A stretch of DNA of 64,000 nucleotides from a virus (lineage: Duplodnaviria > Heunggongvirae > Uroviricota > Caudoviricetes), in IMG/VR virus record IMGVR_UViG_3300032320_002688, positions 1-64,000 of that record, one strand, 5' to 3'. The notes under the pieces were generated by a model that made no database searches, was not told the DNA's origin, and saw only the letters and a list, made by a program, of their open reading frames with translations. Shown piece after piece: positions 14,036 to 31,067 of this stretch. How positions within the stretch are numbered: the first letter of the stretch is position 1; every line of letters begins with the position of its first letter. Both the position numbers and the translations under genes were made by a program.

Positions 14036-14665
14036 CTATAAATAATTTATAAATTCTTCGCCGTTAGATTTTTCATCTATAAGGCCTAATTGTTTTAAAT
14101 GCTCACGATAATGTTCATCCAACTCCCAATCAACCTGAGCTGTTTTAGGTTGGTCAACATAATCTTCAATTGATAATATTTGTTTATTACTATAAACGTC
14201 ACCAACAAATAAAAAGTAACAATTGTAGCAATATAAGTCTAAATTTTCACGTTTCCAATTTTTCTTATTACTATCTTTAAAGTTAAGTAATAATGGAACT
14301 CGATAATCAGTTACTCGTTGTTCATTAAACCCACATTTAGAACAACATTCAGGTAATATTGCCTCTTGTATTAATCGACTTTTAAGTTTATTTACACTAT
14401 AGGATTCAATATACAATTCACCACTTAATATTTGTTGTAATGCTGGTTCCTTGCCTTTATTAGACATAAACTTATTAATACCCCTACCAGCTTGGTTCTT
14501 ATGTAATTCAAATAATGACTTACCTGATGTTTCATCCATCAATATCTTAGCAAACTTTTTATAGTGCTGATATGAGCAATTCAAATAACGAGCTGCTGAG
14601 CGATTACTTTTGGTAACACGCATTGCTCGTAATATATCTTCTTTGCTGATTGGTTTAGGTAACAT
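14036..14665 (-). CDS. putative DNA-binding protein with C-terminal zinc ribbon
   Basis: N-terminal HTH-like ILRAMRVTKSNRSAARYL; CCSKCG ... CYNCY. Confidence 0.4.
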   Translation of the reverse strand: MLPKPISKEDILRAMRVTKSNRSAARYLNCSYQHYKKFAKILMDETSGKSLFELHKNQAGRGINKFMSNKGKEPALQQILSGELYIESYSVNKLKSRLIQEAILPECCSKCGFNEQRVTDYRVPLLLNFKDSNKKNWKRENLDLYCYNCYFLFVGDVYSNKQILSIEDYVDQPKTAQVDWELDEHYREHLKQLGLIDEKSNGEEFINYL

Positions 14666-15078
14666 TAGCTAAACAATGATGGGTTTATTTTACATAATAG
14701 ATTAAATAAATCCTCTGCTGTTTCTAATACAACTTCTTTATTATCTTGATCTAATAAATAATTGACAGTACCATCTGGATTTATTCTGTCATACAAATAA
14801 AATGATACTAATTCAAATCCTTCTTTACCTAAATAAAGTAACAATAATGAATCTATTATTTGATAAAAATCTTCATTATAATTGTCTAATACAATTCTAA
14901 AATCAGTAGCAAGTAATATTTCTCGAGTAATAACTGACTCACACAGGTTAATTACCTGCATGAATATTTCTTTTTTACGTTCAGTATTATTCTTTTTCTT
15001 ACGTTTTAGTGAAGTTGAGGCATTGAGCAATTCATCAAACGCTCGCTTTAGTTCTTCGTTTCTTTCGGGGTTGCTCAT
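14665..15078 (-). CDS. hypothetical protein
   Basis: 137-aa ORF. Confidence 0.45.
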   Translation of the reverse strand: MSNPERNEELKRAFDELLNASTSLKRKKKNNTERKKEIFMQVINLCESVITREILLATDFRIVLDNYNEDFYQIIDSLLLLYLGKEGFELVSFYLYDRINPDGTVNYLLDQDNKEVVLETAEDLFNLLCKINPSLFS

Positions 15079-15394
15079 GTAACAATTTATTTTGTAACTC
15101 TTTTATTTCAATACACATTTCAAAATTATCCTTTTCAGCATGGAATTTAATTACTGATTCCAATGCAGGTACCCATTTATCTTTTTCAAGTATAATTAGG
15201 GTACCTGATGTATTAATTTCAAATAGATGTGCTTCTTGTTTTTTGTTAACAACAGCGTTTTTAATACTATTGTATGTTTCATAGAATACTGATTCCTGAA
15301 ATTGAAGTGATTCCACTAATTCAGCAGATGTGACTTGACTTAAATCAACCATCATCTTAGGAATAGATCTATTTTTTGATTCTTTGGTTATCAT
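15035..15394 (-). CDS. hypothetical protein
   Basis: 119-aa ORF. Confidence 0.4.
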   Translation of the reverse strand: MITKESKNRSIPKMMVDLSQVTSAELVESLQFQESVFYETYNSIKNAVVNKKQEAHLFEINTSGTLIILEKDKWVPALESVIKFHAEKDNFEMCIEIKELQNKLLHEQPRKKRRTKASV

Positions 15395-15843
15395 GCTTTT
15401 AAAACAAAGTCTTGGAAGAATATAACTAATGAATCTAATGGGATTAAAAAGGCAGCTGCGTTTTTTTCAGGTGCGTCTAAATCTCTGTCTAATTCAAGTT
15501 TATATTTTGCAAATTTAGGAGATAATTGAACTGCTAAATCGTTTGAAATTTTATCTAATTCTTCTTTGGATATTAATTCTCTTTCTCTACCATTTTCTAA
15601 TGGGAAGAATTTAATTTTGATACCTTTTTTAGTTTCATTTCTATTAACATCAAACGTTACGTTGAATTGTTGATCGCCTAATGTTGCTTTATATGTGCCA
15701 ATTTCATTTATTGTAGGGTTGTACATGCTTTCATCATTAGCATCTGATTCATCCTCATTAATAAAAAATTCTTTTAAACTATATTTTCCCATTATTATGT
15801 ATTTGTAATAAATATTTAAGATACTTGAGAATCGCCTCTCCAC
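15391..15843 (-). CDS. hypothetical protein
   Basis: 150-aa ORF. Confidence 0.45.
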   Translation of the reverse strand: MERRFSSILNIYYKYIIMGKYSLKEFFINEDESDANDESMYNPTINEIGTYKATLGDQQFNVTFDVNRNETKKGIKIKFFPLENGRERELISKEELDKISNDLAVQLSPKFAKYKLELDRDLDAPEKNAAAFLIPLDSLVIFFQDFVLKA

Positions 15844-16211
15844 ACGCGGTATGAATCGCTATCAAAGTGTTCAGTTGATACTTCAAATACGATACCATCG
15901 GTAAGTGCTTCTAATTGATGTGGTTGACCAGGTAATTGTCTTACACTATCACCTTCACGTAGATGTTTTTCAACCACCTCAGCAGTTTCAGTGTTAATAT
16001 ATCTGTATATAAATTCACCTTCTTTAACATACCATGTTTCATCTTTAATCATATGGTAATGCATACTGAATTTAGCACCTGCTTTAAAACAAAGCAATTT
16101 ACCACAATACAAATCATTATTTTCAAATATGATTTCATGTCCCCATCCTTTAGGCACATTACACTCTTTACATTCTTTAGCATTAAATACTAATGGTTGC
16201 TTATAAGCCAT
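15816..16211 (-). CDS. cupin-domain protein (possible sugar isomerase/epimerase)
   Basis: FSMHYH...DETWYVKEGE cupin motifs; sits in the sugar locus. Confidence 0.5.
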   Translation of the reverse strand: MAYKQPLVFNAKECKECNVPKGWGHEIIFENNDLYCGKLLCFKAGAKFSMHYHMIKDETWYVKEGEFIYRYINTETAEVVEKHLREGDSVRQLPGQPHQLEALTDGIVFEVSTEHFDSDSYRVWRGDSQVS

Positions 16212-16641
16212 AATTCATAATTTTAGTTGTTGAATATTTTTCTTGTCGAGGCCAAAATTTTATATTTTTAAGATATTGTCTTCCTACTATTGGTTTATTT
16301 TGATAATCACTTCCTATAACATAAACATCGGGATTGATTGCCCTTATCAAGGTAATAAGTGATTCATCTGAATCAAATATAAACACATTAGAAGTGTAAT
16401 TTAATGCTTCTAACATTTCTTTACGTTCATAAACATTATGGAATGGTCTATTATCACCTTTTTTATCCTTAACACGTTCATCTGAATCTATTGCTACATA
16501 TAGTTTACCAAACGAAGCAGCAAACTCAAGCAATTTAAAATGTCCATAATGTAAAACATCAAACGTACCATTTACAAATACTTTTGTTTCATTAATAAGT
16601 TTCATATTCAATTTCGGTTGCACCCAGACCCCAATTTTCAT
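16201..16641 (-). CDS. sugar-1-phosphate nucleotidyltransferase, HldE/RfaE domain II-like
   Basis: VFVNGTFDVLHYGHFKLL matches HldE domain II FTNGCFDILHAGHVSYL. Confidence 0.7.
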   Translation of the reverse strand: MKIGVWVQPKLNMKLINETKVFVNGTFDVLHYGHFKLLEFAASFGKLYVAIDSDERVKDKKGDNRPFHNVYERKEMLEALNYTSNVFIFDSDESLITLIRAINPDVYVIGSDYQNKPIVGRQYLKNIKFWPRQEKYSTTKIMNYGL

Positions 16642-16699
16642 CGTTGTCTGTTTCGTTAAAAAATTCTACATAACGCCAAGCGTCATTGTATGCTTTAGC

Positions 16700-17488
16700 T
16701 TAACCCTTAAATGCACCTTTGTTTTCAAGATCGGCAACACGTGTTCCATCTGCTTTAGTAAAATATGCTCCGTGTTCCATATGAAATAAAGCGGGTTGAT
16801 AAGCAACAGCTAATTTAAAGTCATTTATTGCTGCTTTCTTTTGAATATTAGTATCACAAAAACATTGATACAACATTGATTCTTCAAATCCCCTAATCCA
16901 ATGCCATACTTTAGAATGTGCTATTTGAAAGTCACCACAGCAGTTAATTAATGAATATTTGTCATTAGGAGTAACTTGAGCTGGAAAATGACGTTCTGGG
17001 ATTGTATTACATAATTCATCTCTTAATTCACGCCATCCATCTTTACCATGTTTGTAAACTAATTCTTTAGGTGCTTCACGTCTTGAAACAGTAACAAATG
17101 ATTCGCTTCCCATTTCATTAATTAATTTATCTAATTCTTCACGTTTAGGAGGTATAATATCAAGGTTAGTTGATACAATAAAATCAGTTGATAAACGTCT
17201 TATACCAATATTTCTGCTTATTGCTTCATTACATTGTTGTGCTGTAGGGTCATTATGTGTTAATATAGAAGCGATGTTTGGAGGTATCATGATATGTTTC
17301 AATTTACCTGTTTGAGGTAATTGATCCTTAATTTCCCAAAAGAACGAACCCGATGGTGAGTTCCAATCGATATAAATTACTTCATCAAATGTATCCAACA
17401 TTGATCTGAAGTGGATAATACCACGTTCAAAATCTTTGTACCCATCATTTCTATTTACTACTACTGCTCCTACTGACATAATATTCAA
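16700..17488 (-). CDS. hypothetical protein (possible glycosyltransferase)
   Basis: 262 aa, located inside the glycan locus. Confidence 0.4.
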   Translation of the reverse strand: MNIMSVGAVVVNRNDGYKDFERGIIHFRSMLDTFDEVIYIDWNSPSGSFFWEIKDQLPQTGKLKHIMIPPNIASILTHNDPTAQQCNEAISRNIGIRRLSTDFIVSTNLDIIPPKREELDKLINEMGSESFVTVSRREAPKELVYKHGKDGWRELRDELCNTIPERHFPAQVTPNDKYSLINCCGDFQIAHSKVWHWIRGFEESMLYQCFCDTNIQKKAAINDFKLAVAYQPALFHMEHGAYFTKADGTRVADLENKGAFKG

Positions 17489-18332
17489 TTGTTTTTCTTA
17501 ATCCATCTTCCAATGGTGTAAATTGGAAATGTGTTAAACATGTGTTAATCATTTTTTTCGATATCGAACCTACAAATTGATTAGTATCAAACTTAATACT
17601 ATTAAAGTCATAACCAACTATATCACAAATGGTTTGAGCATAATCTCTAATTGAGTAATCTTGTCCTGAAGACAAGTTACATATTTGTGGAGTCCAAGTT
17701 AATGCTTGTTTTATTATTTTAACAGCGTCATCAATATAAATTAATTCACGTCGTTGGTATCCGTCACCCCATAAAACAACCTCACCACCATTTTGTTTTG
17801 CATCAACTATTTTTCTAATTAAATCAAATATAAAATGTCTATCATCTAATTCATAATTGGGTCCATATAATGTAGAAGGAATAAGGTAGGTATATTGCAT
17901 ACCATATTCGTCATTCATTGCCCTACAACCAATTAATAAATTACGCTTAATGTTACCATATACTTCGTATCCAGGTTCAGCTTCACCTTTCAAATAATTA
18001 AATTCTGTTTTTTCAACATTAGCATCGTAACCACAAGATGAACCAAATGTAATTACTTTAGCATTTGGGAAACAATTTTTCCATCCTTGAAAAAAAGCGT
18101 TATTAATGTCTGTATTAATTAGGAATTGTTCGCCTGAATGGTTCTGACAATAACCACCAGCCGCCGTTTTAACGGCCATATGGATTATATAATCATAATT
18201 TTGTCCGCAATCGAACAATTTACCTTTCATATCGTGGCTATTAGCTACCTCAATATCATATTCAGATTGTAAGGCAGGTACTAATGCTCTACCTACAAAC
18301 CCCGTTCCACCTGTAATTAATATCTTTTTCAT
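17451..18332 (-). CDS. NAD(P)-dependent sugar-nucleotide epimerase/reductase (SDR family)
   Basis: KILITGGTGFVGRAL Rossmann motif; GDP-fucose synthase / dTDP-sugar reductase-like. Confidence 0.65.
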   Translation of the reverse strand: MKKILITGGTGFVGRALVPALQSEYDIEVANSHDMKGKLFDCGQNYDYIIHMAVKTAAGGYCQNHSGEQFLINTDINNAFFQGWKNCFPNAKVITFGSSCGYDANVEKTEFNYLKGEAEPGYEVYGNIKRNLLIGCRAMNDEYGMQYTYLIPSTLYGPNYELDDRHFIFDLIRKIVDAKQNGGEVVLWGDGYQRRELIYIDDAVKIIKQALTWTPQICNLSSGQDYSIRDYAQTICDIVGYDFNSIKFDTNQFVGSISKKMINTCLTHFQFTPLEDGLRKTIEYYVSRSSSSK

Positions 18333-18333
18333 A

Positions 18334-18972
18334 TTAGTCTGTAAGTCGTCCCATTTTTAAATCCACATCACATTTTACACCACACAAATGGGATTCGTTT
18401 CTATAAAATATAGTCATGCCGTTATTACCTTTTTGTGTTTTATGTTTCCACTCTGGATTAACTGCTAACCAGTCATCAACTGCTTTTGATTGATCAGGAA
18501 AACAATCCCAAGGATCCATATCATGTGTTATTATAACACCTGTTGGTGACAATAAAGTAGCATAATTATCAAATTCAAATTTAGTATCTACATAATTATG
18601 GCTTGTATCAGTAAAGAATATATCAACTTTACCTACTAATTCACTTAATTGTGGAAATACTGCTTCAGTAGTACCTTGTTTGAATGTCCAAAAAGGTAAT
18701 TGTTCTCTAAGTTGTTGAAAATTGTGTTTTGACTCTGGTAAGTTTTGGTAGTCAGCCATATCCACATCTACTAGTTTGGCACCTACTTTATAAGCGCCTA
18801 AGGCAAAAGCAGCTCCTGAATGTCCATCTCTAATACCAGCATGAACTATTACTTTTGGTTTAATTGCTTCTACTAACTCTAGTAAGTAAGGTAAATGACC
18901 TGCTATGTCACTTTTACTTCTACTTTTTTTCTCATTAAAGAGATCTTCTAATTGTTCTAAAATATTTTCCAT
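18334..18972 (-). CDS. class I SAM methyltransferase-like (Methyltransf_24/CmcI-like)
   Basis: VIVHAGIRDGHSGAAFALG...DIFFTDTSHNY pattern. Confidence 0.45.
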   Translation of the reverse strand: MENILEQLEDLFNEKKSRSKSDIAGHLPYLLELVEAIKPKVIVHAGIRDGHSGAAFALGAYKVGAKLVDVDMADYQNLPESKHNFQQLREQLPFWTFKQGTTEAVFPQLSELVGKVDIFFTDTSHNYVDTKFEFDNYATLLSPTGVIITHDMDPWDCFPDQSKAVDDWLAVNPEWKHKTQKGNNGMTIFYRNESHLCGVKCDVDLKMGRLTD

Positions 18973-18973
18973 G

Positions 18974-19639
18974 TTATTTAAAAATTACTTTGAATGCTGC
19001 TGGATGATATCGAGTGTCTGAGAACCCTAAGTATTCAACATCCTCAATTTTATCTTCCATTTGGTTTAAAAATTCTTTAAATGCTTTATATTCATGATGT
19101 TCCCAATCAGGATAATTAAAAAATTCATCGAATACTAAAACACATTGTTTACTAAAATATGGTTTCATATTATCAAACACACATTTAGTAGATGAATACA
19201 AGTCAGCATCTAAGTGAAGTAAACTAACTCGTTCAATTTTAGTCTCATTAAGAAACTTAGGTAATGTTTCATCAAACCAACCTATTACTAATTCCATTTT
19301 TTCATTTGGTTCAAATGGAGGAACACCCTGGGTATCAAATTTACCTTTTTCATTATGTTCATTCCATTCTTCAGGCAAACCCTCGAATGAATCAAACCCG
19401 TACACTTTATCTTTTAATGTAGTAAGAAATTCTAATGTTTTGCCACTATATACCCCAAACTCAAACCAATCACCATCAGTATCAGCTTCTTTAGCTGCGC
19501 TCATTAAACAATTAGTATGAGCAACTAAATATCTCATTTTAGGTTTAATATCCTGTTCAAATTCTAAAGGTGTAGCACCTAATATTTTATCTCCTAATGT
19601 CATCTTACAAGTTTGTAAAGTTATTATTTGACGCATCAA
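18974..19639 (-). CDS. TylF/MycF-family sugar O-methyltransferase
   Basis: SLLHLDADLYSSTKCVF matches the TylF LHLDxDLYxST motif. Confidence 0.6.
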   Translation of the reverse strand: MMRQIITLQTCKMTLGDKILGATPLEFEQDIKPKMRYLVAHTNCLMSAAKEADTDGDWFEFGVYSGKTLEFLTTLKDKVYGFDSFEGLPEEWNEHNEKGKFDTQGVPPFEPNEKMELVIGWFDETLPKFLNETKIERVSLLHLDADLYSSTKCVFDNMKPYFSKQCVLVFDEFFNYPDWEHHEYKAFKEFLNQMEDKIEDVEYLGFSDTRYHPAAFKVIFK

Positions 19640-20576
19640 TTATTGGATACGCTTTAAGTAATTCTTGTATTCCGTCTTCTAGTGAATATGATGGTTTCCA
19701 ACCCAATGCTTCTAATTTATCGTTAGAAACTATATAGTTGCGTTTATCTGGGTCTTCATTTATTTCAGACTCAGCTATATAAAAATCAGGAATGAATTGT
19801 TTAATCGTTTCACATAATTCTTTCTTACTGATGTTAGCTGTACTTAAACCAACGTTATATGGTTGGCCTTTCATTGTATTAAAGTTATCAATAGCAAATA
19901 AAAATGCTCCAACTACGTCTCTGATATGAATGAAGTTACGTTTGAAGTGTGATTCGAATAGTACGATGTATTTTTCTTTAAATGCTTTATATGTAAAGTC
20001 ATTTACTAATAAATCTAATCTCATTCTTGGAGACATACCAAACACAGTAGCTAATCTAAGTGTTACAGCGTTACCTCTTTGTAATAATGCTTCTTCAGCT
20101 TTAACTTTAGTAACACCATACAATGAAATAGGTTTCAAAGGTGTTTCTTCAGTACAATAAAGATCAGATTGACCAATACCATAACCACTATTAGTTGTGG
20201 GGTAAATGATTTTTTGATCATCTCTGGTATTACGAGCTAACCATTCAAGTGCTGTTTGGTTTGTATCTTGAGTTAACTCAGGATATTTTTTACAAGCAGG
20301 CATTCCTACTATACAAGCTAAAGGAATAATGATATCTGCTTCTTTAACTAATGGCTCCATCATTTTCCAATCACGAACATCACCTTTGATAAATTTAAAG
20401 TTATCTAAATGACAATATTGAGTTAATGATGTATTTTTATACATCAAATTATCTACAACAGTAACGTCGTAATTTCTGTTTATTAGTGAATCTACTAATA
20501 CGGAGCCAATGTAACCTGCTCCTCCGGTTACTAATACTTTATCCATGTTGTTTAATTTGTTTAATAACATCATCAA
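19605..20576 (-). CDS. NAD-dependent nucleotide-sugar epimerase/dehydratase (SDR)
   Basis: KVLVTGGAGYIGSVLVDSL; catalytic YxxxK region. Confidence 0.7.
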   Translation of the reverse strand: MMMLLNKLNNMDKVLVTGGAGYIGSVLVDSLINRNYDVTVVDNLMYKNTSLTQYCHLDNFKFIKGDVRDWKMMEPLVKEADIIIPLACIVGMPACKKYPELTQDTNQTALEWLARNTRDDQKIIYPTTNSGYGIGQSDLYCTEETPLKPISLYGVTKVKAEEALLQRGNAVTLRLATVFGMSPRMRLDLLVNDFTYKAFKEKYIVLFESHFKRNFIHIRDVVGAFLFAIDNFNTMKGQPYNVGLSTANISKKELCETIKQFIPDFYIAESEINEDPDKRNYIVSNDKLEALGWKPSYSLEDGIQELLKAYPIIDASNNNFTNL

Positions 20577-21141
20577 CGCTAGGTAAAAATGCTTCTACAG
20601 TGTCTTTTAATTCTAATAATTTTGCTGATTTATCTCTTTCAGATAAAATTGGTTTATCAATAGGCCAAGTAATATCTAAAACCGGATCATCCCATCTAAC
20701 AGTAAATTGATTTTCAGAGCCTTTATAGTATTCAGATTGTTTATAACTGAAGATACCAAATTCACTCATTACTAAATGTCCATTAGCACACCCAGCAGGA
20801 ATTAATACTTGACTTCTGTTTTTGTCGTTAATTGGGATTTGAATCCATTTCAAGTAACTTGGAGATTCAGGTCTCATATCGACAACGGTAGCTAACATAC
20901 TACCATACAAGCATTGAACTAATTTCCATGTGTGTTTATCACCATGTAATCCTCTCAATGTGTGTCTAACTGATGTACTAACGTCATCTTGTACCCATCT
21001 AATAGGGGCACCTGCGTTGTACTTAAATACTTCATAAAACTGTTGGTTAAATGTTTCTATATACTCCCCTCTATAGTCATAGTGTTTGAATGGGGTAATA
21101 ATAGCTACATCTTTAATTACATCACTAAATTTATATTCCAT
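20539..21141 (-). CDS. dTDP-4-dehydrorhamnose 3,5-epimerase-like (RmlC cupin)
   Basis: RGLHGDKHTWKLVQCLYGSMLATVVDMRPESPSY...IPAGCANGH matches RmlC conserved blocks. Confidence 0.65.
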   Translation of the reverse strand: MEYKFSDVIKDVAIITPFKHYDYRGEYIETFNQQFYEVFKYNAGAPIRWVQDDVSTSVRHTLRGLHGDKHTWKLVQCLYGSMLATVVDMRPESPSYLKWIQIPINDKNRSQVLIPAGCANGHLVMSEFGIFSYKQSEYYKGSENQFTVRWDDPVLDITWPIDKPILSERDKSAKLLELKDTVEAFLPSVDDVIKQIKQHG

Positions 21142-21896
21142 TATAATTCATTTGGGTTAACAATCGTTGTTCCTTTTCTTTGTACTACATAAGTAGCGCA
21201 TTTGTTAGCATAGTTAATTGCTTTAACAATATCACCTGTTTGGCAAAACTTAACAGCTAAACCAGCTAAAAATGTATCTCCAGCTCCAGTATTATCCTTA
21301 ACGTCTACTTTTTGAACAGGATAAACTTTACCATCATGAATACATCCTTGACTACTTATAGTTACAATAGTTTTATCTAATATTTTTTGTGATACATGTC
21401 CTCTACATTTAGCAAATTCACTTTCGTTTATTTTAATGTAGCTAATTTTATCAGCAAATATATTATTGATTACTTTTTTAGTATCTAAAAATGTTATGTT
21501 AGAATTTTCAGCTATGTAAGTGATATCATCTTCTTCTAAAAATCCTTTACAATAATCACTTATAACAACAGCATCAAATGCTCTAAAATTTATTTTTTCT
21601 AAATCAGTAACTCGAGCTATATGTTCCTCTCCAGTATCAACTCTAACAAACATATGGTTTGTTTTAGAGTCAACATACCTGGTTTTATGTATTTGTTCTT
21701 TATTAGTTAAAGTAGTTACTTCTGCTCCTAATGCCTCAATGTTTCTAACTACATTACCAGCCATACCTGGATATGTAATTGTTTCTGCGGGTACCATTAC
21801 TGGTACTGGAGCATCAGGACACATTCTAAGACATTTACCATAAACGTAAACGTCCATACAACTATCTCCAACTACTAATATTTTAGGTTTTTTCAT
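21141..21896 (-). CDS. PfkB-family sugar kinase, HldE/RfaE domain I-like
   Basis: ILVVGDSCMDVY N-terminus; C-terminal NTGAGDTF anion-hole motif. Confidence 0.7.
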   Translation of the reverse strand: MKKPKILVVGDSCMDVYVYGKCLRMCPDAPVPVMVPAETITYPGMAGNVVRNIEALGAEVTTLTNKEQIHKTRYVDSKTNHMFVRVDTGEEHIARVTDLEKINFRAFDAVVISDYCKGFLEEDDITYIAENSNITFLDTKKVINNIFADKISYIKINESEFAKCRGHVSQKILDKTIVTISSQGCIHDGKVYPVQKVDVKDNTGAGDTFLAGLAVKFCQTGDIVKAINYANKCATYVVQRKGTTIVNPNEL

Positions 21897-21897
21897 A

Positions 21898-22299
21898 TTA
21901 CCAACTAATTTCCCAATCTTTAAAATCGGCTGCTAAACAATCTATTTTATAATCTTTTCTACCACCAACTACTTCTTGAATTTTGTTTTTAGCGGTGTTT
22001 CTAATTCCATTTAAACCATGAGTTAATTCTAGGTTATTACCATCTTTAATTCCCTTACGATAATTTGATTCGTTATGCCAAATGTGTAAGTTCATTTGTG
22101 ATAATACTACAATCGCTCTGATTGTCTCGGCTGTTACTTTTCCATTTTGTTCATCCAACAAGATTTGAATGTCATGTACTATGTCGTTAATTTCTTGAGC
22201 GTATTCATCTTTATGATCAGCAATGAATACCTCTTTGAGTTGACTAATAGATAATCTGTCTACTAGTTCTGATAATGTGGGTAAATATTTTCTTTCCAT
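21898..22299 (-). CDS. hypothetical protein
   Basis: 133-aa ORF. Confidence 0.45.
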   Translation of the reverse strand: MERKYLPTLSELVDRLSISQLKEVFIADHKDEYAQEINDIVHDIQILLDEQNGKVTAETIRAIVVLSQMNLHIWHNESNYRKGIKDGNNLELTHGLNGIRNTAKNKIQEVVGGRKDYKIDCLAADFKDWEISW

Positions 22300-22301
22300 T
22301 C

Positions 22302-23213
22302 TTATAAGTTATTTAATTCTATTAGGGTATCCAAATATTTCTCCAATCGTTTGAAGAAAAATCCTTGTTCTTTAACTAATTCATAGTTGTTCTCTATATA
22401 AGGTAATCTACTATAGTAGTCTTCAGGAGTTAGTTTATTAATAATGTCTACTAATTCATTTTCATCATTAAAATATATAACACCACGTTCGTCGTACCAA
22501 TCACCTATATTAGGAGCACCCCAATAAATTGGTAATGTTTTAGTACCAAAACAATCTAATATTTTATCTGTAAAATAATGTTTGTGTTTTGAATTTTCAA
22601 CGGCTACATGAAACATCTTATGTGTGTTCCATACTTGTTTTTTACCATCACCCTCAATTGGGTTGCCGTTTGGTCCTATTTTTGTTTCGAAGTATCCAGG
22701 TCGTTGTCCTCTTTCTTGGTCAAAGTCATCTAATACTCTCCACCAATTGTTAGGTATCTGTATTTGATCACCTTTAGCTAATATGCGTTGACGTAATTTA
22801 TGTCCGTCTAACATTTCGAGAATACCACTTAAGAAAGTAACCCCAAACTCACGTTCAGGGTTAGTTTCAAATGTGTTTATATAGTTAATATCTAAGTTAG
22901 TTTCACCATGTAAAAATAAACTATAATTAGGAGTATCACCTAATATTTCTTCATCCCAACTTAATACAGCGGAAAATGCGTTATAATTATTTTTTACAAA
23001 TGAATGTAAACCAAATAATTCATTTGGTTCATTCAGTACAATCAAATTAACATCACTATATTCACTCGCATCTCGAGGAACATAATCATTAAATATTGTT
23101 ATTGATTTATTCTTATATTTTTCTAAACAACCTAATTCTCTTTCGTAACGTTCTATAGGTAGATAACTACTATATAGTTTCATAAAACTTATTTTGTTTT
23201 TCTTGTCTATCAA
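22302..23213 (-). CDS. GT10-like (alpha-1,3-fucosyltransferase-motif) glycosyltransferase
   Basis: FHVAVENSKHKHYFTDKILDCF matches the FucT motif FxLxFENSxxxxYxTEK. Confidence 0.5.
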   Translation of the reverse strand: MIDKKNKISFMKLYSSYLPIERYERELGCLEKYKNKSITIFNDYVPRDASEYSDVNLIVLNEPNELFGLHSFVKNNYNAFSAVLSWDEEILGDTPNYSLFLHGETNLDINYINTFETNPEREFGVTFLSGILEMLDGHKLRQRILAKGDQIQIPNNWWRVLDDFDQERGQRPGYFETKIGPNGNPIEGDGKKQVWNTHKMFHVAVENSKHKHYFTDKILDCFGTKTLPIYWGAPNIGDWYDERGVIYFNDENELVDIINKLTPEDYYSRLPYIENNYELVKEQGFFFKRLEKYLDTLIELNNL

Positions 23214-23784
23214 TATCTTTAATATGAGTTAAAGACCATTCTTCTAAGGCCGGTAATTGAGCTGATGTTTTAAATCCGGTTAGGCGTTCATGTACTTTAT
23301 TAATCCATTGAATTTCGGGTTTATTTGCACATATACGTGTTTGATAATCGGGCCAGTTAATCCAACCATTATCATCTACAAACCATCTCCATTTATCAAT
23401 GTGAGCTTGAGTTAAACCATTTACTTTATTAACTCGAGGAACTGCTATTAAATCAACTATACCTTTATTTAATTCTAAAAATTCATGGATGTTTTTAGAA
23501 AAATAATAATTTAATGTTTCATCAGCATCAATAAAGAAAATCCAATCTTTAGTACATAAACTTTTAAGATTATTTTTAAATGTAGCAAAGTCTTTATTTA
23601 ATGGATGGAAATAATTCATTAACTTGTACTTATTAACTACCTCTTTTACTTCATCAGTAGCAGTAATATCCATCTGTACCACTATTTCATCTTCCTCTCT
23701 AATATTTTTTACAAGTTGCTGTAAGAGTTTATCTAATTCCTCATGTTCGTTATGAACAGTAATTGCAAAACTAATAGTAGCCAT
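23170..23784 (-). CDS. GT2-family glycosyltransferase
   Basis: ISFAITVHNE...FFIDADETL (DxD). Confidence 0.5.
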   Translation of the reverse strand: MATISFAITVHNEHEELDKLLQQLVKNIREEDEIVVQMDITATDEVKEVVNKYKLMNYFHPLNKDFATFKNNLKSLCTKDWIFFIDADETLNYYFSKNIHEFLELNKGIVDLIAVPRVNKVNGLTQAHIDKWRWFVDDNGWINWPDYQTRICANKPEIQWINKVHERLTGFKTSAQLPALEEWSLTHIKDIDRQEKQNKFYETI

Positions 23785-23788
23785 AATG

Positions 23789-24250
23789 TTAATTTTGATC
23801 GTTAAATACTCCGATGTATTCTAAAGCATCCATAAAATTAGTTCTTTCAAACAATTTAAGAGACTTCATATCGGTTTTGTGGGTATAATATTCTTCTGTT
23901 CCTGGTTTTTTGAATTTTGCTTTTTCCTCTTCTTCTACTTCAGTCATCAACACACCAGCCCATTTCCATTCTTCCTTGTTTTTACCATAAGCAAAAACAG
24001 TACCTTGGTTTTCAATGTTAACTGATTGAGGGTACCAAACACGTCCTTCACTATCAGTATGTTTTATGTCAACATAAAGATAAGGTAATGATTGATCATA
24101 TTCTTCAAAGTTAAATTCACCTTCTCTAATCAAATCAGATGTTTGATATCCACATCCGAAACAAGCGTAATTTGAATGAAACTCATTAATTGGGGTTTGA
24201 TAGCAAGCATCGCTACCGCATTTGGGACATATTACTAAATTGTCTTCCAT
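23789..24250 (-). CDS. zinc-ribbon protein
   Basis: CPKCGSDACY...CFGCGYQT. Confidence 0.45.
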   Translation of the reverse strand: MEDNLVICPKCGSDACYQTPINEFHSNYACFGCGYQTSDLIREGEFNFEEYDQSLPYLYVDIKHTDSEGRVWYPQSVNIENQGTVFAYGKNKEEWKWAGVLMTEVEEEEKAKFKKPGTEEYYTHKTDMKSLKLFERTNFMDALEYIGVFNDQN

Positions 24251-24304
24251 ACTATATCTAAATTATAAGTGTTATTTGAATAGGTGAATATTACTCCACC
24301 TGTA

Positions 24305-25597
24305 TTATTTTGGTAATTCAATTTTATCTATTTTAGGTAACTTTAATTCTACTTTCTTAGGAACAAATGCTTCAAATATTGTATCTAATTTTTCAGTCAT
24401 TTTTTCTAATGAGAAGTTTTGTTTATTTCTAAATGCTAATTGTTTTGCTTTAGGAAGATATTTTTTATAATTTTCAAATACATCTTTCATTAACCCAATA
24501 GCATATCCTTGATCTACATTAAACCAACCACCTTGTTCTAGTATAAAGTCATTTACTGCTGATTTATCAACTGCTTTTACTTCACCTGGAATTAAATTAG
24601 CAAATTCGGGATCTAAGAAATCTAAATGACCTGACCAACCTGATGCTAATAATGGTTTTTGTGTTAGTGTAAATTCTAATAATGGGCGACCAAATCCTTC
24701 ACCTTTAGTAAATGATAACATTGCTTTTACTTTAGGGTGGTTATATAAGAAGTTCATTTGAGAATCTTCTAATTCACCATGTAATAAATAAATGTTAGGT
24801 AAAGTAGACGTTTTAACTTCACTTTTAATAGCATCTATTTTTTTCAATACTTCCTCTCTATCCATAATAGAAGCAGGACCGTGAGATACTTTTAATATTA
24901 ATCCAGGAGCATTCTTTTTATTTTTAAATGCTTCTAAGAACATTCTAATCATTAATGCTACATTCTTTCTATCTTCACCAAATCCTCCAGGTAACCAATG
25001 ACCTACAAATAAGAAATTAAAATCAGATTCAATTTCATCTAATGCTTCTACTAATTCATCAGCAGGTATTTCATCATCGCTCATTGGAAAGTATTTCTCT
25101 AAATCTGCACCCTCAAATAATACTTGAATTGGTTTTTCTAATACTAATGTACCTTCAGGAGCATTTGTTGTTTTATTTCTTCTTTCAAATTTAGATTCTT
25201 CAAATACTTTTTTAGCATGTTCAGATGATACTAAAGTTAAATTCATTTTATTAATACCTTCAATCCACGTGGGAGCACATATTGTAGTTTCAATACCTGC
25301 TGTAATACCAATATTGTATTTTCCTACTGGTTGAAATTCGTTAGGTACTGTAATTTGAATCCACACATCTGGTTGTGATTGTAATTGTGGTGCTGGGTAG
25401 TAGTTGTCTAATATTTGTTTTTCTTCTGCTATATCTGCATTTAAAGCCCCATAAGGTGTATTACCCCATCGCTGTGGCATGATTTTAATATCATATTTAC
25501 CTGTTTTAAATAGAGCTTTTACTATGTCTCTTGAACGTGCGCCATATCCACTGAATGTATCAATTGGACAGCTAACTATAACTAATGGTTTTGCCAT
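24305..25597 (-). CDS. GT4 (group 1) glycosyltransferase
   Basis: SFTKGEGFGRPLLEFTLTQKPLLAS C-terminal EX7E-type motif. Confidence 0.65.
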   Translation of the reverse strand: MAKPLVIVSCPIDTFSGYGARSRDIVKALFKTGKYDIKIMPQRWGNTPYGALNADIAEEKQILDNYYPAPQLQSQPDVWIQITVPNEFQPVGKYNIGITAGIETTICAPTWIEGINKMNLTLVSSEHAKKVFEESKFERRNKTTNAPEGTLVLEKPIQVLFEGADLEKYFPMSDDEIPADELVEALDEIESDFNFLFVGHWLPGGFGEDRKNVALMIRMFLEAFKNKKNAPGLILKVSHGPASIMDREEVLKKIDAIKSEVKTSTLPNIYLLHGELEDSQMNFLYNHPKVKAMLSFTKGEGFGRPLLEFTLTQKPLLASGWSGHLDFLDPEFANLIPGEVKAVDKSAVNDFILEQGGWFNVDQGYAIGLMKDVFENYKKYLPKAKQLAFRNKQNFSLEKMTEKLDTIFEAFVPKKVELKLPKIDKIELPK

Positions 25598-25600
25598 ATT

Positions 25601-27037
25601 TTAATATACTAATTTGTGACGTAATTTTTTAACTGGATATTTTTCTACTTTGATTAATTCGAATGATTTTCTTGGTTTCCAAGTTGCTAATGTTTGATCA
25701 ATATATTTGATAACATTATTACACATCCAACGGGCAGACATCATAGATTCATCACTAGTAACCCATTTGTGTCCTGACATCCCACGTCTTGCTCTTTCTT
25801 CTTTATTTAAATCAAAACATTCTTTGATTGCATTAGCTAAATCTCTGAAATCAACTCTATCATCCCAAATGTATGGAGTTGGAGGTGAACCTACAAGTGA
25901 TCTATTACTTGGGAATACTGGTATTGCCCATTCACCACACTTTTTATATGTGCCGAAGTGATTTGAACAAAAGTTCTCATCAAATTTAATCCACTCACCA
26001 TTCTCATCTTCAAAACGCATTTGGTCTTGCATACCACCTGTTACGTTAGCAATAATCATCTTTCCAGCCATCATCGCCTCAGTAAGTGACAATCCCCATC
26101 CTTCGTTAGATGAAGGTAAAACACAAACGTCTGATAAATTATAAAGTAAATTAAGTTCCTGAGATGATATTCTATTATTTGAGAACATTACATTTGCTTT
26201 TTCAGTGCATATTAAGTCTTTAACTGCAACTAAATCCGTTCCGTGTTCATCAATTGGTTGAGTATGAAGTACTAAAGCACATTTTGCTGCTTGTTCATCT
26301 GTTAATCCTTCAACAAATGTTTGATATGCAGCAATTAAATCAGAAGTACATTTACGTCTAATATTTCGAGCATTGTAAAAAACAATATACTCATATTCTT
26401 TATCTCCGAAAAGTGACTTTTTAATTTCTTGTAATCTAGTATATTCACTATGCTTAGTATCTACAGGAAAAAATATTTTTTCATTAATACCATGAGGTAC
26501 ATAAGCAACAACTTTATCTTTTGCTTTATCACCTAATACTAATCTATTAATATTTTCTGTTTGTTTACTGATAGCAAGTAATGCATCACATGACTCATAA
26601 TACGGCTCATTATATAATGGAGCAGGTAAGTCATCCCAAATATTTAAATAAATAAATGGTAATTGTTTTCTAAATTCATTTTCAACTTGAAATAACCAAA
26701 TCCAATATCTAGGATCTGTAAAGAAAAAGATAGCATCTGGTTTTTCGGCTGTGATTAATTGTCTAATCAAATCAGCTGTACCATAACCATCAATCGGAAG
26801 AATTTTAACATTAGAATCAGTAATACCCGCGTGCGCGTTAGTATCTTCTGCTACGTCAATAATTTTTCCTTGTTCTGGGTGTTTAATAGCGGCACCAACA
26901 TTAAACCAATTGTATCGGTGTGCCGTTCCGATTACGATTTCTCTTGCCATCGTTGCAATACCAGAATGCATTCTAATATCGTCGCAGAGGAATAAAATCT
27001 TCTTCCTGTCGCTTTGCGGAATGTAACCTTCTTTCAT
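25601..27037 (-). CDS. GT4 (group 1) glycosyltransferase
   Basis: VLPSSNEGWGLSLTEAMMAGKMIIAN. Confidence 0.65.
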   Translation of the reverse strand: MKEGYIPQSDRKKILFLCDDIRMHSGIATMAREIVIGTAHRYNWFNVGAAIKHPEQGKIIDVAEDTNAHAGITDSNVKILPIDGYGTADLIRQLITAEKPDAIFFFTDPRYWIWLFQVENEFRKQLPFIYLNIWDDLPAPLYNEPYYESCDALLAISKQTENINRLVLGDKAKDKVVAYVPHGINEKIFFPVDTKHSEYTRLQEIKKSLFGDKEYEYIVFYNARNIRRKCTSDLIAAYQTFVEGLTDEQAAKCALVLHTQPIDEHGTDLVAVKDLICTEKANVMFSNNRISSQELNLLYNLSDVCVLPSSNEGWGLSLTEAMMAGKMIIANVTGGMQDQMRFEDENGEWIKFDENFCSNHFGTYKKCGEWAIPVFPSNRSLVGSPPTPYIWDDRVDFRDLANAIKECFDLNKEERARRGMSGHKWVTSDESMMSARWMCNNVIKYIDQTLATWKPRKSFELIKVEKYPVKKLRHKLVY

Positions 27038-27057
27038 TAACCTAATTTTTTTGTTTT

Positions 27058-27297
27058 TTAATTATTAACTGGAGTAGCGCTGCCTGTTAAGCTTAAAGTA
27101 CTGTGAGTGTGTATTTGTTTTCTAAAATCTTCGTTTGTAAGATATAGATGCATTGCTCTATCTGTTAATTTTTGAAGTGAAAACTTAGTGCGCACACACG
27201 CAACTTTAAATTCATCAAACAAATGCTCGTGTACTTTAACACTTGTTAATTGTAACTTATTTTTTTCCATAGCCGATTTTGATATAAATATATACAC
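27058..27297 (-). CDS. hypothetical protein
   Basis: 79-aa ORF. Confidence 0.4.
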   Translation of the reverse strand: MYIFISKSAMEKNKLQLTSVKVHEHLFDEFKVACVRTKFSLQKLTDRAMHLYLTNEDFRKQIHTHSTLSLTGSATPVNN

Positions 27298-27308
27298 ATC
27301 TACGAAAA

Positions 27309-28271
27309 CTACGCTACTTCAAAAAATTTCTTTTGAGGAATATTTTTATCACATAAGTTGGGTTTATCATTAAATGGACACCATGTACAAGAATCTTTAC
27401 TTACATTTTTAGGATGTTCGTGGTCTCTATAAATTCCATCTTCATAAAATGCTTCGCTCAAAAATTCTTCAAAGTGAGTAACTATTTGCTTACGCTTAAT
27501 TTTACCACTAGCTGGAGCCCACATTTGTATTCTTGGAATTGTATAATCCTCGTTTTCCCAAATTTTACGTTTAACAATAAAATATTGAACATCTACTTTA
27601 TCAACATCTAATTTATATTGTTTAGCAAAAAATTCTTTATACAATAATATCTGAGATATAACCGACTCGTCTTTTTTCTTTTTATCATTCCATCCACTAC
27701 GAGATGTTTTGATATCATAAATAATTACTTTATCTAAATCCATGTCGTATAAAACTAAATCAATATAACCTTTAAGGAATATATTTTTAGTTAAACCAAC
27801 CATTAATGGCATTTCAATACCTAATAACCTAACATTACGTGTTGAAAAATATTTATTTCTGTTTTTCTTAAACCAATCAAGTATAACACATCCATCCTCA
27901 AAAAATTCTTTCATTTCATCAGGAGATGAGAAATGTGTTTTAACTTTATTATATTCTTCTTTGTAAACAGTTCTAAATCGTTCATTAAAGTAAGCTACAA
28001 TATCCACTCTATCAGCAGCAGCACCACTCTCAGAATACATTATTTGAAAATAATGCTGCAGCGCCTCATGCATAGCAGTTCCGAATACTGTATGAATTGA
28101 AGCTTGATAGGGTGCTAAATTCTTAATGTATTGTAAATACCAATGGTGAGGGCATTTTCTATATATTGAATACTGAGAATATGAAACACTATTTTGATAA
28201 CTGTGATTTATTTCAGGTAACTTAGTTTCTTTAATTAGTTTTTCAATATCTGTAAGTTTTTTCTTAGCCAT
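27309..28271 (-). CDS. PD-(D/E)XK nuclease, Cas4/RecB-like with C-terminal Cys cluster
   Basis: GYIDLVLYD...IYDIKTS (D..D/ExK); C-terminal CTWCPFNDKPNLC. Confidence 0.55.
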   Translation of the reverse strand: MAKKKLTDIEKLIKETKLPEINHSYQNSVSYSQYSIYRKCPHHWYLQYIKNLAPYQASIHTVFGTAMHEALQHYFQIMYSESGAAADRVDIVAYFNERFRTVYKEEYNKVKTHFSSPDEMKEFFEDGCVILDWFKKNRNKYFSTRNVRLLGIEMPLMVGLTKNIFLKGYIDLVLYDMDLDKVIIYDIKTSRSGWNDKKKKDESVISQILLYKEFFAKQYKLDVDKVDVQYFIVKRKIWENEDYTIPRIQMWAPASGKIKRKQIVTHFEEFLSEAFYEDGIYRDHEHPKNVSKDSCTWCPFNDKPNLCDKNIPQKKFFEVA

Positions 28272-30914: not shown

Positions 30915-30935
30915 AACTTAATAATTTTTTAATTT

Positions 30936-31022: not shown

Positions 31023-31067
31023 CGTCGTGAATTACTTCACTGTAACTGAATCAGCCTTAACAGTTGA

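Follow-up and report, generated by a model that had tools for sequence, protein, structure and literature searches.

What does a tailed phage build with 11 kb of sugar genes, and to which acceptor is the product attached? The question is raised by positions 15816-27037 of a 64,000-nucleotide stretch of the Caudoviricetes virus record IMGVR_UViG_3300032320_002688 in IMG/VR (positions 1 to 64,000 of that record; here called the window), an interval that an initial annotation, made without database searches, had described as a co-oriented glycan biosynthesis island of about 11 kb. A sugar-building phage locus was confirmed in this interval. It contains 15 minus-strand open reading frames (ORFs), which overlap at starts and stops or are separated by gaps of at most 54 nucleotides (Table 1), and it is composite, consisting of a clade-wide conserved glycosyltransferase core (23170-27037) and a swappable cassette (15816-23213). 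We lean slightly toward a reading in which one co-oriented phage operon builds an oligosaccharide in the cytoplasm, with the conserved core joined by a cassette for the outer, variable sugar. The product of the window's cassette would most likely be a re-shaped, methylated seven-carbon sugar.

All long ORFs of the window lie on the minus strand, and the G+C content is about 31%. The replication genes are T4-like and include those for a clamp loader, a family B polymerase, a DnaB-like helicase, ribonucleotide reductase, gp32 and a RecA/UvsX-like protein. In a scan for promoters and terminators, promoter-like sites were fewer than in shuffled sequence. Pfam domain calls were judged by gathering score and NCBIfam calls by equivalog cut-offs, and a PHROG scan was also used. 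The Pfam scan covered the window ORFs of at least 60 amino acids (aa) minus three large, presumably structural ORFs (57433-60912, 60914-61258 and 61262-63415), two of which had no match in PHROG; statements below about Pfam-scanned ORFs have this scope.

Table 1. Genes of the glycan locus, listed from the lowest window coordinate
Positions	Strand	Product	Basis
15816..16211	-	Metal-binding cupin, proposed lyxose/mannose-type ketol-isomerase	Cupin_2 32.7 bits; weak Lyx_isomer and MannoseP_isomer matches; phrog_7851
16201..16641	-	Cytidylyltransferase-like sugar-1-phosphate nucleotidyltransferase, HldE domain II/HldC-like	CTP_transf_like PF01467 69.8 bits (cut-off 21); HYGH motif
16592..17488 (ORF 16700-17488)	-	GT-A-fold glycosyltransferase with in-frame TAA at 16700-16702	Fold match; no Pfam match
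17451..18332	-	Short-chain dehydrogenase/reductase (SDR), GDP-fucose-synthase-like C4-ketoreductase (Cj1428-like role)	Epimerase 114 bits; YGNIK motif
18334..18972	-	Methyltransf_24-family S-adenosylmethionine (SAM) methyltransferase	Methyltransf_24 42.5 bits
18974..19639	-	TylF-family SAM methyltransferase (sugar O-methylation inferred)	TylF 43.9 bits; Methyltransf_24 35 bits
19605..20576	-	SDR, predicted Cj1427-like NDP-heptose C4-dehydrogenase	Pfam Epimerase; GxxGxxG and Y-x3-K (YGVTK) motifs
20539..21141	-	RmlC/Cj1430-like cupin-fold NDP-4-keto-sugar 3- or 3,5-epimerase	dTDP_sugar_isom PF00908 152 bits, full length
21141..21896	-	PfkB sugar kinase, HldE domain I/HldA-like	PfkB PF00294 74.4 bits; NTGAGDTF motif
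21898..22299	-	133-aa protein, no assigned function	Sub-threshold DUF7783 and DUF7164 matches only
22302..23213	-	GT10-like transferase, first cassette gene	Pfam Glyco_transf_10 26.9 bits (threshold 23.9), C-terminal part only
23170..23784	-	Core GT2 glycosyltransferase, 204 aa, last core gene	Pfam Glycos_transf_2 38.6 bits; DxD motif FFIDADE
23789..24250	-	Zinc-ribbon protein, 153 aa, N-terminal CxxC...CxxC	Weak zinc-ribbon matches, no family at threshold
24305..25597	-	GT4b core glycosyltransferase, 430 aa, divergent paralogue-like GT-B	phrog_2170 'glycosyltransferase' 7e-19; motif GEGFGRPLLE
25601..27037	-	GT4a core glycosyltransferase, 478 aa, retaining GT-B type	Pfam Glycos_transf_1 47.4 bits; phrog_2170; E-x7-E motif NEGWGLSLTE

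Conserved core and variable cassette

The core genes run in the order GT4, GT4, zinc-ribbon protein, GT2, and this order is identical in vB_FspM_immuto (immuto), a Flavobacterium phage and the closest cultured relative. When IMG/VR was scanned with GT4b, relatives were found to be encoded on at least 597 stretches. From these, 80 related loci were fetched, and across them a six-gene order that includes the core was invariant as far as each contig reached. The corresponding order in immuto, PD-(D/E)XK nuclease, small ORF, GT4a, GT4b, zinc-ribbon protein and GT2, matches that of the window, and core and flanks in the two phages are 42-60% identical. Downstream of the cassette, immuto has homologues of the genes at 15391-15843 and 14665-15078, of the HNH gene and of the DUF932 gene. 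GroEL (54% identity), GroES, DpdA, the DUF932 protein and the HNH protein are shared between the two as well.

GT4a is 60% identical to immuto gp181 and was missing from just one of the 80 related loci, which a contig end cuts short. GT4b scores below the Pfam threshold (15.9 versus 26.4 bits), but its E-x7-E motif is intact, and it shares 55% identity with immuto gp180, which is annotated as RfaG. The zinc-ribbon protein (42% identity to gp179) was detected in 74 loci and lies between GT4b and GT2 wherever both were detected (69 of the 80), and the core GT2 is 49% identical to gp178. The best NCBIfam match of the GT2 was to the peptide S-glycosyltransferase SunS; at 33 bits, far below the cut-off, it was set aside as generic similarity in the GT2 N-terminal part and is no evidence of a peptide acceptor. 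The five glycosyltransferases counted in the initial annotation are therefore of unequal standing: the core GT2, the GT10-like enzyme and GT4a pass Pfam, GT4b fails it and is held by phrog_2170, its motif and its immuto homologue, and the fifth is recognized by fold only. The plural "zinc-ribbon proteins" of that annotation reduces to the single one in the core. The core is constant throughout a large group of immuto-related aquatic phages, and we infer that its transferases would add the inner sugars to an acceptor shared by all of them.

In nucleotide searches of positions 15000-28000 (megablast against 50,697 phage records), no close DNA relative was found, and the window's polymerase is at most 36% identical to any among these records. 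In the phage group to which immuto belongs, the replicative polymerase has been exchanged among families A, B and C (PMC11348598), which explains why the polymerase search missed immuto. An exact 43-mer from the kinase gene had no match in IMG/VR; by exact protein identity, the sequence was located in ENA metagenome assemblies, which contain sister contigs.

The cassette behaves differently from the core. The 391 ORFs of 52 related cassettes fell into 138 families, 64 of them singletons. The larger families comprise DegT-type aminotransferases (29 of the 52 loci), GDP-mannose 4,6-dehydratase, several SDRs, RmlD-like and PseB-like enzymes, a sugar C-methyltransferase, NTP_transferase, transketolase-like proteins of the thiamine pyrophosphate (TPP) type, GT2s, FkbM and Methyltransf_24 methyltransferases and a 2-oxoglutarate (2OG) oxygenase; two more families resemble small HAD phosphatases with a DxDxT-type motif, one of which was scanned and gave no Pfam match. 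Among the 39 loci with at least six cassette families, 28 cassette types were distinguished, a scale of exchange like that of bacterial O-antigen and capsule loci. Where the GT4b proteins of two loci are 85-95% identical, the cassettes have hardly any genes in common (mean Jaccard index, 0.11), and loci L069 and L070, with GT4b 92.5% identical, have not one cassette family in common. Such turnover between near-identical phages argues for diversifying selection on the product. In immuto, the roughly 7 kb between core and flank is unrelated to the window's cassette. Encoded there are aminotransferases, an epimerase, a methyltransferase, further glycosyltransferases and an acetyltransferase-like protein labeled "pilin glycosylation protein," a gene content that points to an amino-deoxy sugar and not a heptose. 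The window's own cassette recurred, among the loci compared, only in L006, where the TylF-like methyltransferase is missing.

The GT10-like family is present in 19 of the 52 related cassettes, and the C-terminal part of the window's member that Pfam matched (about 80 residues) is 43% identical to a "putative transferase" of cyanophage S-SM2. The adjacent 133-aa protein is 78-95% identical in L006, L052, L058 and L059, while its neighbors there are 40-55% identical; this suggests very strong constraint or the recent spread of one gene.

An HldE-like kinase and nucleotidyltransferase with a cupin

Activation of the cassette sugar is proposed to depend on three genes, those for the kinase, the nucleotidyltransferase and the cupin. 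The first two had been read initially as HldE split into separate genes for domains I and II, and this reading held at the level of family ranking. The best NCBIfam match of the kinase was TIGR02198 (rfaE_dom_I; 131.8 bits, compared with 51 bits for ribokinase), and that of the nucleotidyltransferase was TIGR02199 (rfaE_dom_II; 100.1 bits, compared with 61 bits for glycerol-3-phosphate cytidylyltransferase and 47 bits for pantetheine-phosphate adenylyltransferase [PPAT]), both scores being below the equivalog cut-offs of 345 and 181.5 bits, respectively. The split is not unusual, as cyanophages S-SM2, P-TIM68, P-SSM2 and S-CAM1 have the same separate genes.

The kinase is 41-48% identical to cyanophage proteins annotated as "carbohydrate kinase." Its best match in the Protein Data Bank (PDB) was the Burkholderia heptose-7-phosphate kinase 4E84, to which it aligns in patches only, and it falls short of HldE domain I by about 60 residues. 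The nucleotidyltransferase gene probably starts at the ATG at 16605, since the first 12 codons of 16201-16641 lie, in another reading frame, over the part of the upstream gene that encodes its conserved C terminus. Its product is 41-43% identical to the products of cyanophage genes, and its best PDB match was TagD, a glycerol-3-phosphate cytidylyltransferase, with the C-terminal RQEKYSTT aligned to RTEGISTT of TagD. It has an arginine at the position named STTR5 in PMC11461863, a commentary on Tang et al. (Science 2024). According to that commentary, arginine at STTR5 allows the synthesis of CDP- and UDP-heptose, and viral sets of NDP-heptose enzymes without a phosphatase are already noted there. 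The phage enzyme may use CTP or UTP.

These scores also bear on a reading in which the two proteins are unrelated to each other, the kinase being of the ribokinase type, the nucleotidyltransferase serving CDP-glycerol, CDP-ribitol or pantetheine-phosphate synthesis, and "heptose" being an artefact of annotation. Such a reading can draw on the sub-cut-off rfaE scores, the TagD match, the short kinase and its patchy alignment. Against it stand the margins by which the rfaE profiles outscore the ribokinase, TagD-type and PPAT profiles, the recurrence of both genes with the same cupin in operons and fusions (see below) and their location beside heptose-type modification enzymes. We consider it very unlikely, and its specific version of a ribokinase plus PPAT, which the initial annotation had raised against itself, was rejected on this evidence.

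The cupin, whose family was correctly recognized in the initial annotation (Cupin_2 passes Pfam), keeps both cupin metal motifs, and 3,858 homologues of it were detectable. A cyanophage protein annotated as "cysteine dioxygenase," the gene of which adjoins those of the kinase and the nucleotidyltransferase, shares 45% identity with it. A profile of the family, built from 58 diverse members, matched D-lyxose ketol-isomerase 2Y0O in the PDB (1.5e-7) over nearly the full length, including the N-terminal YC-K-L, and it also matched 3KMH and the D-lyxose/D-mannose isomerase 7NZO. Lyxose and mannose isomerases interconvert a ketose and an aldose of manno configuration at C2, and GmhA does the same on sedoheptulose-7-phosphate. 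Because the two catalyze the same type of interconversion, the cupin is proposed to supply the manno-heptose and is probably the missing isomerase of the locus.

The three genes recur together elsewhere. A cupin-nucleotidyltransferase-kinase operon, with the cupin first, was found on contigs of about 303 kb (L087-L091, ENA/JGI; 302-304 kb), and among the cupin homologues are fusions to the nucleotidyltransferase in both orders as well as one to a HAD/NT5C-like domain that passes the MannoseP_isomer threshold. The approximately 303-kb contigs resemble complete genomes of a large virus that has a glycan locus of its own; around the trio they encode PF11397 "GlcNAc" transferases, a HAD-NTP_transferase fusion, aminotransferases, acetyltransferases and methyltransferases. 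The full trio is also present in S-SM2 and P-TIM68, and the kinase gene, usually with an adjacent nucleotidyltransferase gene, in P-SSM2, S-CAM1 and other cyanophage records. From the operon, the fusions and the co-occurrence in cyanophages, kinase, nucleotidyltransferase and cupin would appear to act as one functional unit.

The islands of these T4-like cyanophages resemble the window's locus in that a lytic myovirus carries homologues of the trio (41-48% identity) amid nucleotide-sugar epimerases and glycosyltransferases; they differ in adding small HAD phosphatases, transketolase-like proteins and an aldolase. In tblastn searches of the cyanophages, neither the GT4-GT4-zinc-ribbon-GT2 core nor a dehydrogenase, epimerase or reductase of Cj1427 grade was found, only SDRs of 23-26% identity. 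The S-SM2 and P-TIM68 proteins annotated as "phosphoheptose isomerase" (L001, 17975-18286 and 19616-19945; L002, 14284-14622) are about 105 aa long with an N-terminal DxDxT, and they look like HAD phosphatases with a GmhB-like role and not like GmhA.

The initial annotation had seen neither GmhA nor GmhB, and none was found in the 64 kb. No family of SIS-fold GmhA or HAD phosphatase occurred among the Pfam-scanned ORFs, tblastn of the window with the cyanophage "phosphoheptose isomerase" (HAD) proteins returned nothing, and a six-frame scan of the 64 kb for DxDxT matched only the DxD motif of the GT2 and no HAD phosphatase motif. The proposed route would use a host phosphatase or proceed via unphosphorylated heptose. 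Compared with the ADP-heptose pathway of HldE or HldA plus HldC and with the viral NDP-heptose enzymes described in PMC11461863, the locus has the same kinase and nucleotidyltransferase families and the arginine at STTR5; it differs in its sub-cut-off scores, in having a cupin and not a SIS-fold GmhA as the isomerase candidate, and in a product that is apparently remodeled and is not the ADP-L,D-heptose of the lipopolysaccharide (LPS) core.

Putative heptose-type remodeling genes

Between the kinase and nucleotidyltransferase genes of the window, and also of L006, lie the modification genes. Both SDR enzymes that had been proposed pass the Pfam Epimerase threshold. The one at 19605-20576 matched PDB entry 6VO6 with an E value of 7e-121 and 59% identity (177 of 301 residues, ungapped), and the next best PDB match was at 2e-25. 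The PDB title of 6VO6 is "putative sugar-nucleotide epimerase/dehydratase"; we take this entry to be Cj1427, the GDP-heptose C4-dehydrogenase. The RmlC-like epimerase was likewise upheld by its Pfam match, although it resembles Campylobacter jejuni heptose epimerases about as well as RmlC. Its top PDB matches were the C. jejuni GDP-D-glycero-4-keto-D-lyxo-heptose 3- and 3,5-epimerases 8DCL, 8DAK, 8DCO and 7M14 (5e-34 to 3e-32), dTDP-sugar RmlC entries were within a few bits of these, and its TIGR01221 score of 140.5 bits is just below the cut-off of 155.75. The SDR at 17451-18332 is assigned at the family level (NF047922, GDP-L-fucose synthase, 114.8 bits against a cut-off of 500; PDB GDP-fucose synthases, 5e-23), and its predicted role as a C4-reductase follows from context. 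Of the two methyltransferases, the TylF-like one stood, and the label "CmcI-like" did not: the CmcI score of 18 bits falls short of 23.2, and only Methyltransf_24 passes.

The GT-A enzyme is interrupted in the window. Its product of 259-262 aa compares with an expected length of about 295; the homologues are 291-300 aa long and have Glu where the window has TAA, and the frame runs on past the TAA to 16592, encoding a conserved C-terminal tail of 35 codons. Since the truncated allele was assembled from a second sample too, it is a real population variant and not a sequencing error; the stop would be a genuine nonsense mutation or, possibly, a site of read-through. A few of the homologues carry PF00535, and an invariant motif, STN-x-D, was noted. 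A profile of the GT-A sequences gave no significant match in the PDB, so that a fold search was needed. An AlphaFold model of P0001, a full-length homologue of 97% identity, reached a pLDDT of 80.6 and a pTM of 0.85, and Foldseek matched it to K4CP, SpsA, the fucosyltransferase WrtF and GalNAc-Ts at 3e-8 to 1e-5 (probability 1.0 for K4CP, SpsA and WrtF; TM about 0.5).

L045 and L081 share with the window the gene order epimerase, dehydrogenase, methyltransferase, reductase, GT-A; in these two loci, epimerase, dehydrogenase, reductase and GT-A are 54-76% identical to those of the window and the slot of 18334-18972 holds a methyltransferase-like gene of only about 20% identity. Because it travels with the epimerase, dehydrogenase and reductase, the GT-A enzyme is the best candidate for the transferase of the remodeled sugar.

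The same three types of remodeling enzyme constitute the C. jejuni scheme for capsular heptoses, in which a C4-dehydrogenase, a C3/C5-epimerase and a C4-reductase act (Cj1427, Cj1430 type and Cj1428 type; PMC10680097) and in which the Cj1427 family acts on GDP-alpha-heptose (PMC10680097). The phage proteins resemble this set by the 59% identity to 6VO6, by the epimerase matches at about 1e-33 and by a reductase that is like GDP-fucose synthase, the family of the C. jejuni C4-reductases. They differ in that the phage has the PfkB kinase, the cytidylyltransferase-fold enzyme and the cupin and is without GmhA and GmhB, and in that the C. jejuni product goes to an ABC-exported capsule while the phage locus is without export genes. 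A dehydrogenase of the C4 type, in place of a 4,6-dehydratase, should leave the 6-hydroxyl intact, so that a 6-hydroxy heptose and not a deoxy sugar is expected. From the alternatives first offered, a methylated deoxy- or heptose-containing glycan, the heptose type, probably methylated, thus stands, and the deoxy sugar is the less likely one. In C. jejuni, heptoses are O-methylated in some serotypes.

A pattern-based scan of bacterial genomes for a Cj1427-like gene found two loci only, both in metagenome-assembled genomes of Planctomycetota (L085 and L086). The homologue there is 58% identical to the SDR at 19605-20576 and lies beside genes for a reductase, a split transketolase, a GHMP kinase and an NTP_transferase. 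These neighbors tie the family of the SDR to heptose synthesis, but of the GDP-alpha type. The cluster, which also has a B12-binding radical-SAM enzyme and aminotransferases, suggests a pathway for a C-methylated or aminated heptose outside Campylobacter.

Proposed pathway

If the homologies extend to function, the cupin would isomerize sedoheptulose, or its 7-phosphate, to D-glycero-D-manno-heptose or the 7-phosphate thereof; the HldE-I-like kinase would phosphorylate C1; and the HldE-II-like nucleotidyltransferase, with the arginine typical of CTP-using relatives, would form an NDP-heptose, a host phosphatase being needed only on the 7-phosphate route. The Cj1427-like dehydrogenase would then oxidize C4, the RmlC/Cj1430-like epimerase would invert C3 and/or C5, the fucose-synthase-like reductase would restore the C4 hydroxyl, and the two SAM methyltransferases would O-methylate the sugar. 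Its transfer would fall to the GT-A enzyme, which is truncated in this population, and to the GT10-like enzyme. A heptose is preferred over a hexose by virtue of the identity to 6VO6, the top PDB matches of the epimerase, the C. jejuni scheme and the heptose-type context in Planctomycetota, and the placement of the modification module between kinase and nucleotidyltransferase in the window and in L006 favors a single pathway. The initial claim that the locus is sufficient to activate, modify, methylate and transfer a heptose-type sugar is supported by homology in these respects.

Several points weigh against this pathway. All NCBIfam equivalog scores are below their cut-offs, so the substrates are inferred. 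Generic non-isomerase bicupins match the cupin profile equally well, and the AlphaFold model of the cupin, from a shallow alignment, had a pLDDT of 47, for which reason the diverse family profile was compared with PDB sequences in place of a fold search. GDP-alpha-heptose is made by a GHMP kinase and an NTP_transferase, and HldE-type enzymes in bacteria give the beta-anomer with ADP; with a GDP-alpha substrate for the Cj1427 family and a beta product from HldE-type enzymes, nucleotide and anomer may mismatch. In L045 and L081 the modification module and the GT-A gene are present, but the kinase, the nucleotidyltransferase and the cupin are not, so the submodules are separable, and the substrate of the modification module might be a sugar of the host, for example GDP-mannose. 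To these may be added the lack of an encoded phosphatase in the 64 kb, as judged by the DxDxT motif scan, and the real population stop codon that cuts the candidate heptosyltransferase, GT-A.

Separability is the basis of an alternative in which the locus makes two independent sugars: the modification module and GT-A would remodel a host hexose nucleotide (GDP-mannose), and the trio would activate another sugar, for example for the GT10-like enzyme. The module occurs without the trio in L045, L081 and L040, and the trio occurs without the module on the approximately 303-kb contigs and in cyanophages; the difference in nucleotide and anomer type between HldE-like enzymes and Cj1427 and the fact that the best solved relative of the nucleotidyltransferase is a glycerol-3-phosphate cytidylyltransferase point the same way. 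This alternative does not account well for a module inserted within the trio in both the window and L006, for the high identity to heptose-specific C. jejuni enzymes with a 58%-identical bacterial homologue in a heptose-type context, or for the HMM ranking, which prefers a heptose kinase and a heptose-1-phosphate nucleotidyltransferase. We regard two separate sugars as possible but improbable and retain the single heptose pathway as the working interpretation.

Acceptor of the glycan

As the acceptor we favor a phage-encoded protein, most simply one of the virion, that would be glycosylated in the cytoplasm, in preference to the host envelope. This judgment follows from a core that is conserved like an essential function, from the lack of polytopic membrane proteins, from the turnover of the cassette and from the improbability of DNA as the acceptor. 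The core is found on at least 597 contigs in fixed order, though the hosts of the clade and their glycans must vary, and the swapping of cassettes would reflect diversifying selection on an exposed glycan. Virus-encoded glycosylation of virions occurs in mycobacteriophages, chloroviruses and Megavirinae. The locus resembles such systems (mycobacteriophage capsid and tail, the PBCV-1 capsid and the rare-sugar clusters of Megavirinae; PMC11256854) in its soluble cytoplasmic glycosyltransferases and methyltransferases, in its rare bacterial-like sugars and in gene sets that differ between related viruses. It differs from them in that it is not beside structural genes and in the scale of its cassette exchange.

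With regard to membrane proteins, a hydropathy scan, in which positive controls elsewhere in the window were detected, revealed no ORF with three or more predicted helices in the window's cassette or in the 52 related cassettes, and no Pfam family of an initiating phosphoglycosyltransferase, flippase, polymerase or ABC transporter appeared in the scans of the window or of the cassette families. Without a polytopic membrane protein, these cassettes lack a flippase, a polymerase, an initiating transferase and a permease, and by its gene content the locus would not be classed as a Wzx/Wzy- or ABC-dependent O-antigen or capsule locus.

Remodeling of the host surface is nevertheless a serious rival, since soluble transferases could feed a host export pathway. 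Under this reading the genes are auxiliary and alter LPS, O-antigen, capsule or a protein O-glycan by feeding host lipid-linked export, with the benefit that superinfection is blocked or that progeny are kept from adsorbing to debris. Weighing against virion glycosylation and for this rival, PMC7029224 interprets the rfaE-like genes and glycosyltransferases of pelagimyophages and cyanomyophages as serving host O-antigen modification. Capsule and LPS terms appear in the annotation of cyanophage islands that have this kinase, nucleotidyltransferase and cupin, and the diversity of the cassettes, whose genes resemble bacterial O-antigen and capsule enzymes, could mirror strain-specific host glycans. 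Opposed to it are the absence from this and the 52 related cassettes of an initiating phosphoglycosyltransferase, flippase, polymerase, ligase, ABC transporter or any polytopic protein and the conservation of the core, in the manner of essential phage genes, despite differing hosts. Classic seroconverting phages, moreover, are temperate and have membrane Gtr or Oac proteins. We thus consider host-surface remodeling to be rather unlikely, and virion glycosylation remains the preferred reading.

DNA as the acceptor has a precedent in phage clusters in which a HAD/APH enzyme, a cytidylyltransferase and a GT-B transferase give mono- or di-heptosyl-5-hydroxymethylcytosine (5hmC; bioRxiv 10.1101/2023.12.21.572611). 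The window's transferases would then attach heptose glycans to a modified base, and the combination of a cytidylyltransferase-type enzyme with GT-B transferases is common to both, heptose being among the sugars that those clusters add. The locus also lies in the replication region beside a PD-(D/E)XK nuclease and the clamp loader, and GT4a has a sub-threshold match to PF20706, "GT4 in conflict systems." Hypermodification clusters of this kind, however, depend on an adjacent enzyme forming 5hmC or 5-hydroxymethyluracil (5hmU), and among the Pfam-scanned ORFs of the window there was no cytosine C5-methyltransferase, TET/JBP enzyme, dCMP/dUMP hydroxymethylase or thymidylate synthase; the 2OG oxygenases of the window belong to PF13640 and not to TET_JBP. 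The window instead has FolE, QueC, QueD and DpdA for 7-deazaguanine DNA, and in immuto, which has the same transferase core, liquid chromatography-UV-mass spectrometry revealed only dA, dC, dT and fdPreQ1, i.e., DNA that is not glycosylated (PMC10516641). Glycosylation of DNA was rejected on these grounds (no hmC- or hmU-forming enzyme among the scanned ORFs, the deazaguanine genes and the base content of immuto), and we judge it highly improbable.

The 7-deazaguanine set comprises FolE (42989-43621), a weak radical-SAM candidate for QueE (44177-45016), QueC (45009-45875), DpdA (46073-46867; 33% identical to its immuto homologue) and QueD (47047-47514). Neither QueF nor DpdN was detected in the window, and the final base may therefore be another one than the fdPreQ1 of immuto.

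Novelty and implications

Sugar islands in phages, viral HldE-like genes and virus-encoded glycosylation are already known. Within the literature searched, three features appear to be new: in immuto-like phages, a hypervariable cassette joined to a conserved core of four genes; activation of the HldE type together with a Campylobacter-type trio of heptose-remodeling enzymes plus methyltransferases; and the cupin as a candidate isomerase. Together they allow two linked proposals, which we put forward only tentatively: that immuto-like phages, which are lytic, aquatic and abundant worldwide, decorate a component of their own, probably the virion, with a glycan whose inner part is fixed by the core and whose outer part is swapped, and that the trio is a self-sufficient route to NDP-heptose free of GmhA and GmhB.

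If the first proposal is true, it would describe a serotype-like system in a virus of bacteria, operating by swaps of rare-sugar cassettes between close relatives. "LPS-like" sugar genes have long been seen in marine and freshwater phages, and the host surface role usually assumed for them rests, in the work considered, on inference and not on experiment (PMC7029224). With the core on hundreds of viral contigs and in a cultured phage, immuto of Flavobacterium sp. LMO8, the question of a virion or a host acceptor is testable. Near-identical cores with unrelated cassettes imply strong diversifying selection on a phage-made glycan, as in capsule and O-antigen loci, and the turnover bears on host range, on evasion of defense and on how metagenomic "auxiliary metabolic genes" are read. 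If the second proposal is true, a cupin like lyxose/mannose isomerases would replace the SIS-fold isomerase, and a start from unphosphorylated sedoheptulose would make a phosphatase unneeded. HldE-type activation combined with heptose remodeling and a cupin isomerase could open new routes to rare NDP-heptoses.

Other genes of the window

Two Sulfotransfer_2-family sulfotransferases and an adenylyl-sulfate (APS) kinase are encoded at 7788-8471, 9253-9792 and 13090-14034, just downstream of the glycan locus, and in comparison with immuto the gene at 13090-14034 is an insertion between those for HNH and DUF932. The phage may therefore sulfate the glycan or another acceptor. No ATP sulfurylase was found in the window. 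A small HxGH nucleotidyltransferase (8898-9296) adjoins the APS kinase and has weak Pfam matches to CTP_transf_like and ATP-sulfurylase; it was considered as a mini ATP-sulfurylase and rejected, because NCBIfam prefers an NMN-adenylyltransferase-like assignment (32 bits, below the cut-off).

A NodU/CmcH-type carbamoyltransferase (31985-33616; phrog_1601) is flanked by two PF13640 2OG-Fe(II) oxygenases (30106-30681 and 33610-34284), and a third such oxygenase is encoded at 3319-3915. Carbamoyltransferase and oxygenases could represent a further decoration activity. A 417-aa ORF near the replication genes (55246-56499) matched neither Pfam nor PHROG and may be a divergent second PolA ("divPolA1"; PMC11348598). 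The window contains a single tRNA gene, for tRNA-Ser (anticodon UGA), on the minus strand at 30936-31023, and the overlapping plus-strand "ORF" at 30934-31215 is probably spurious. The phage also encodes GroEL (34310-35956), GroES (35961-36248) and an Hsp20 small heat-shock protein (36314-36730).

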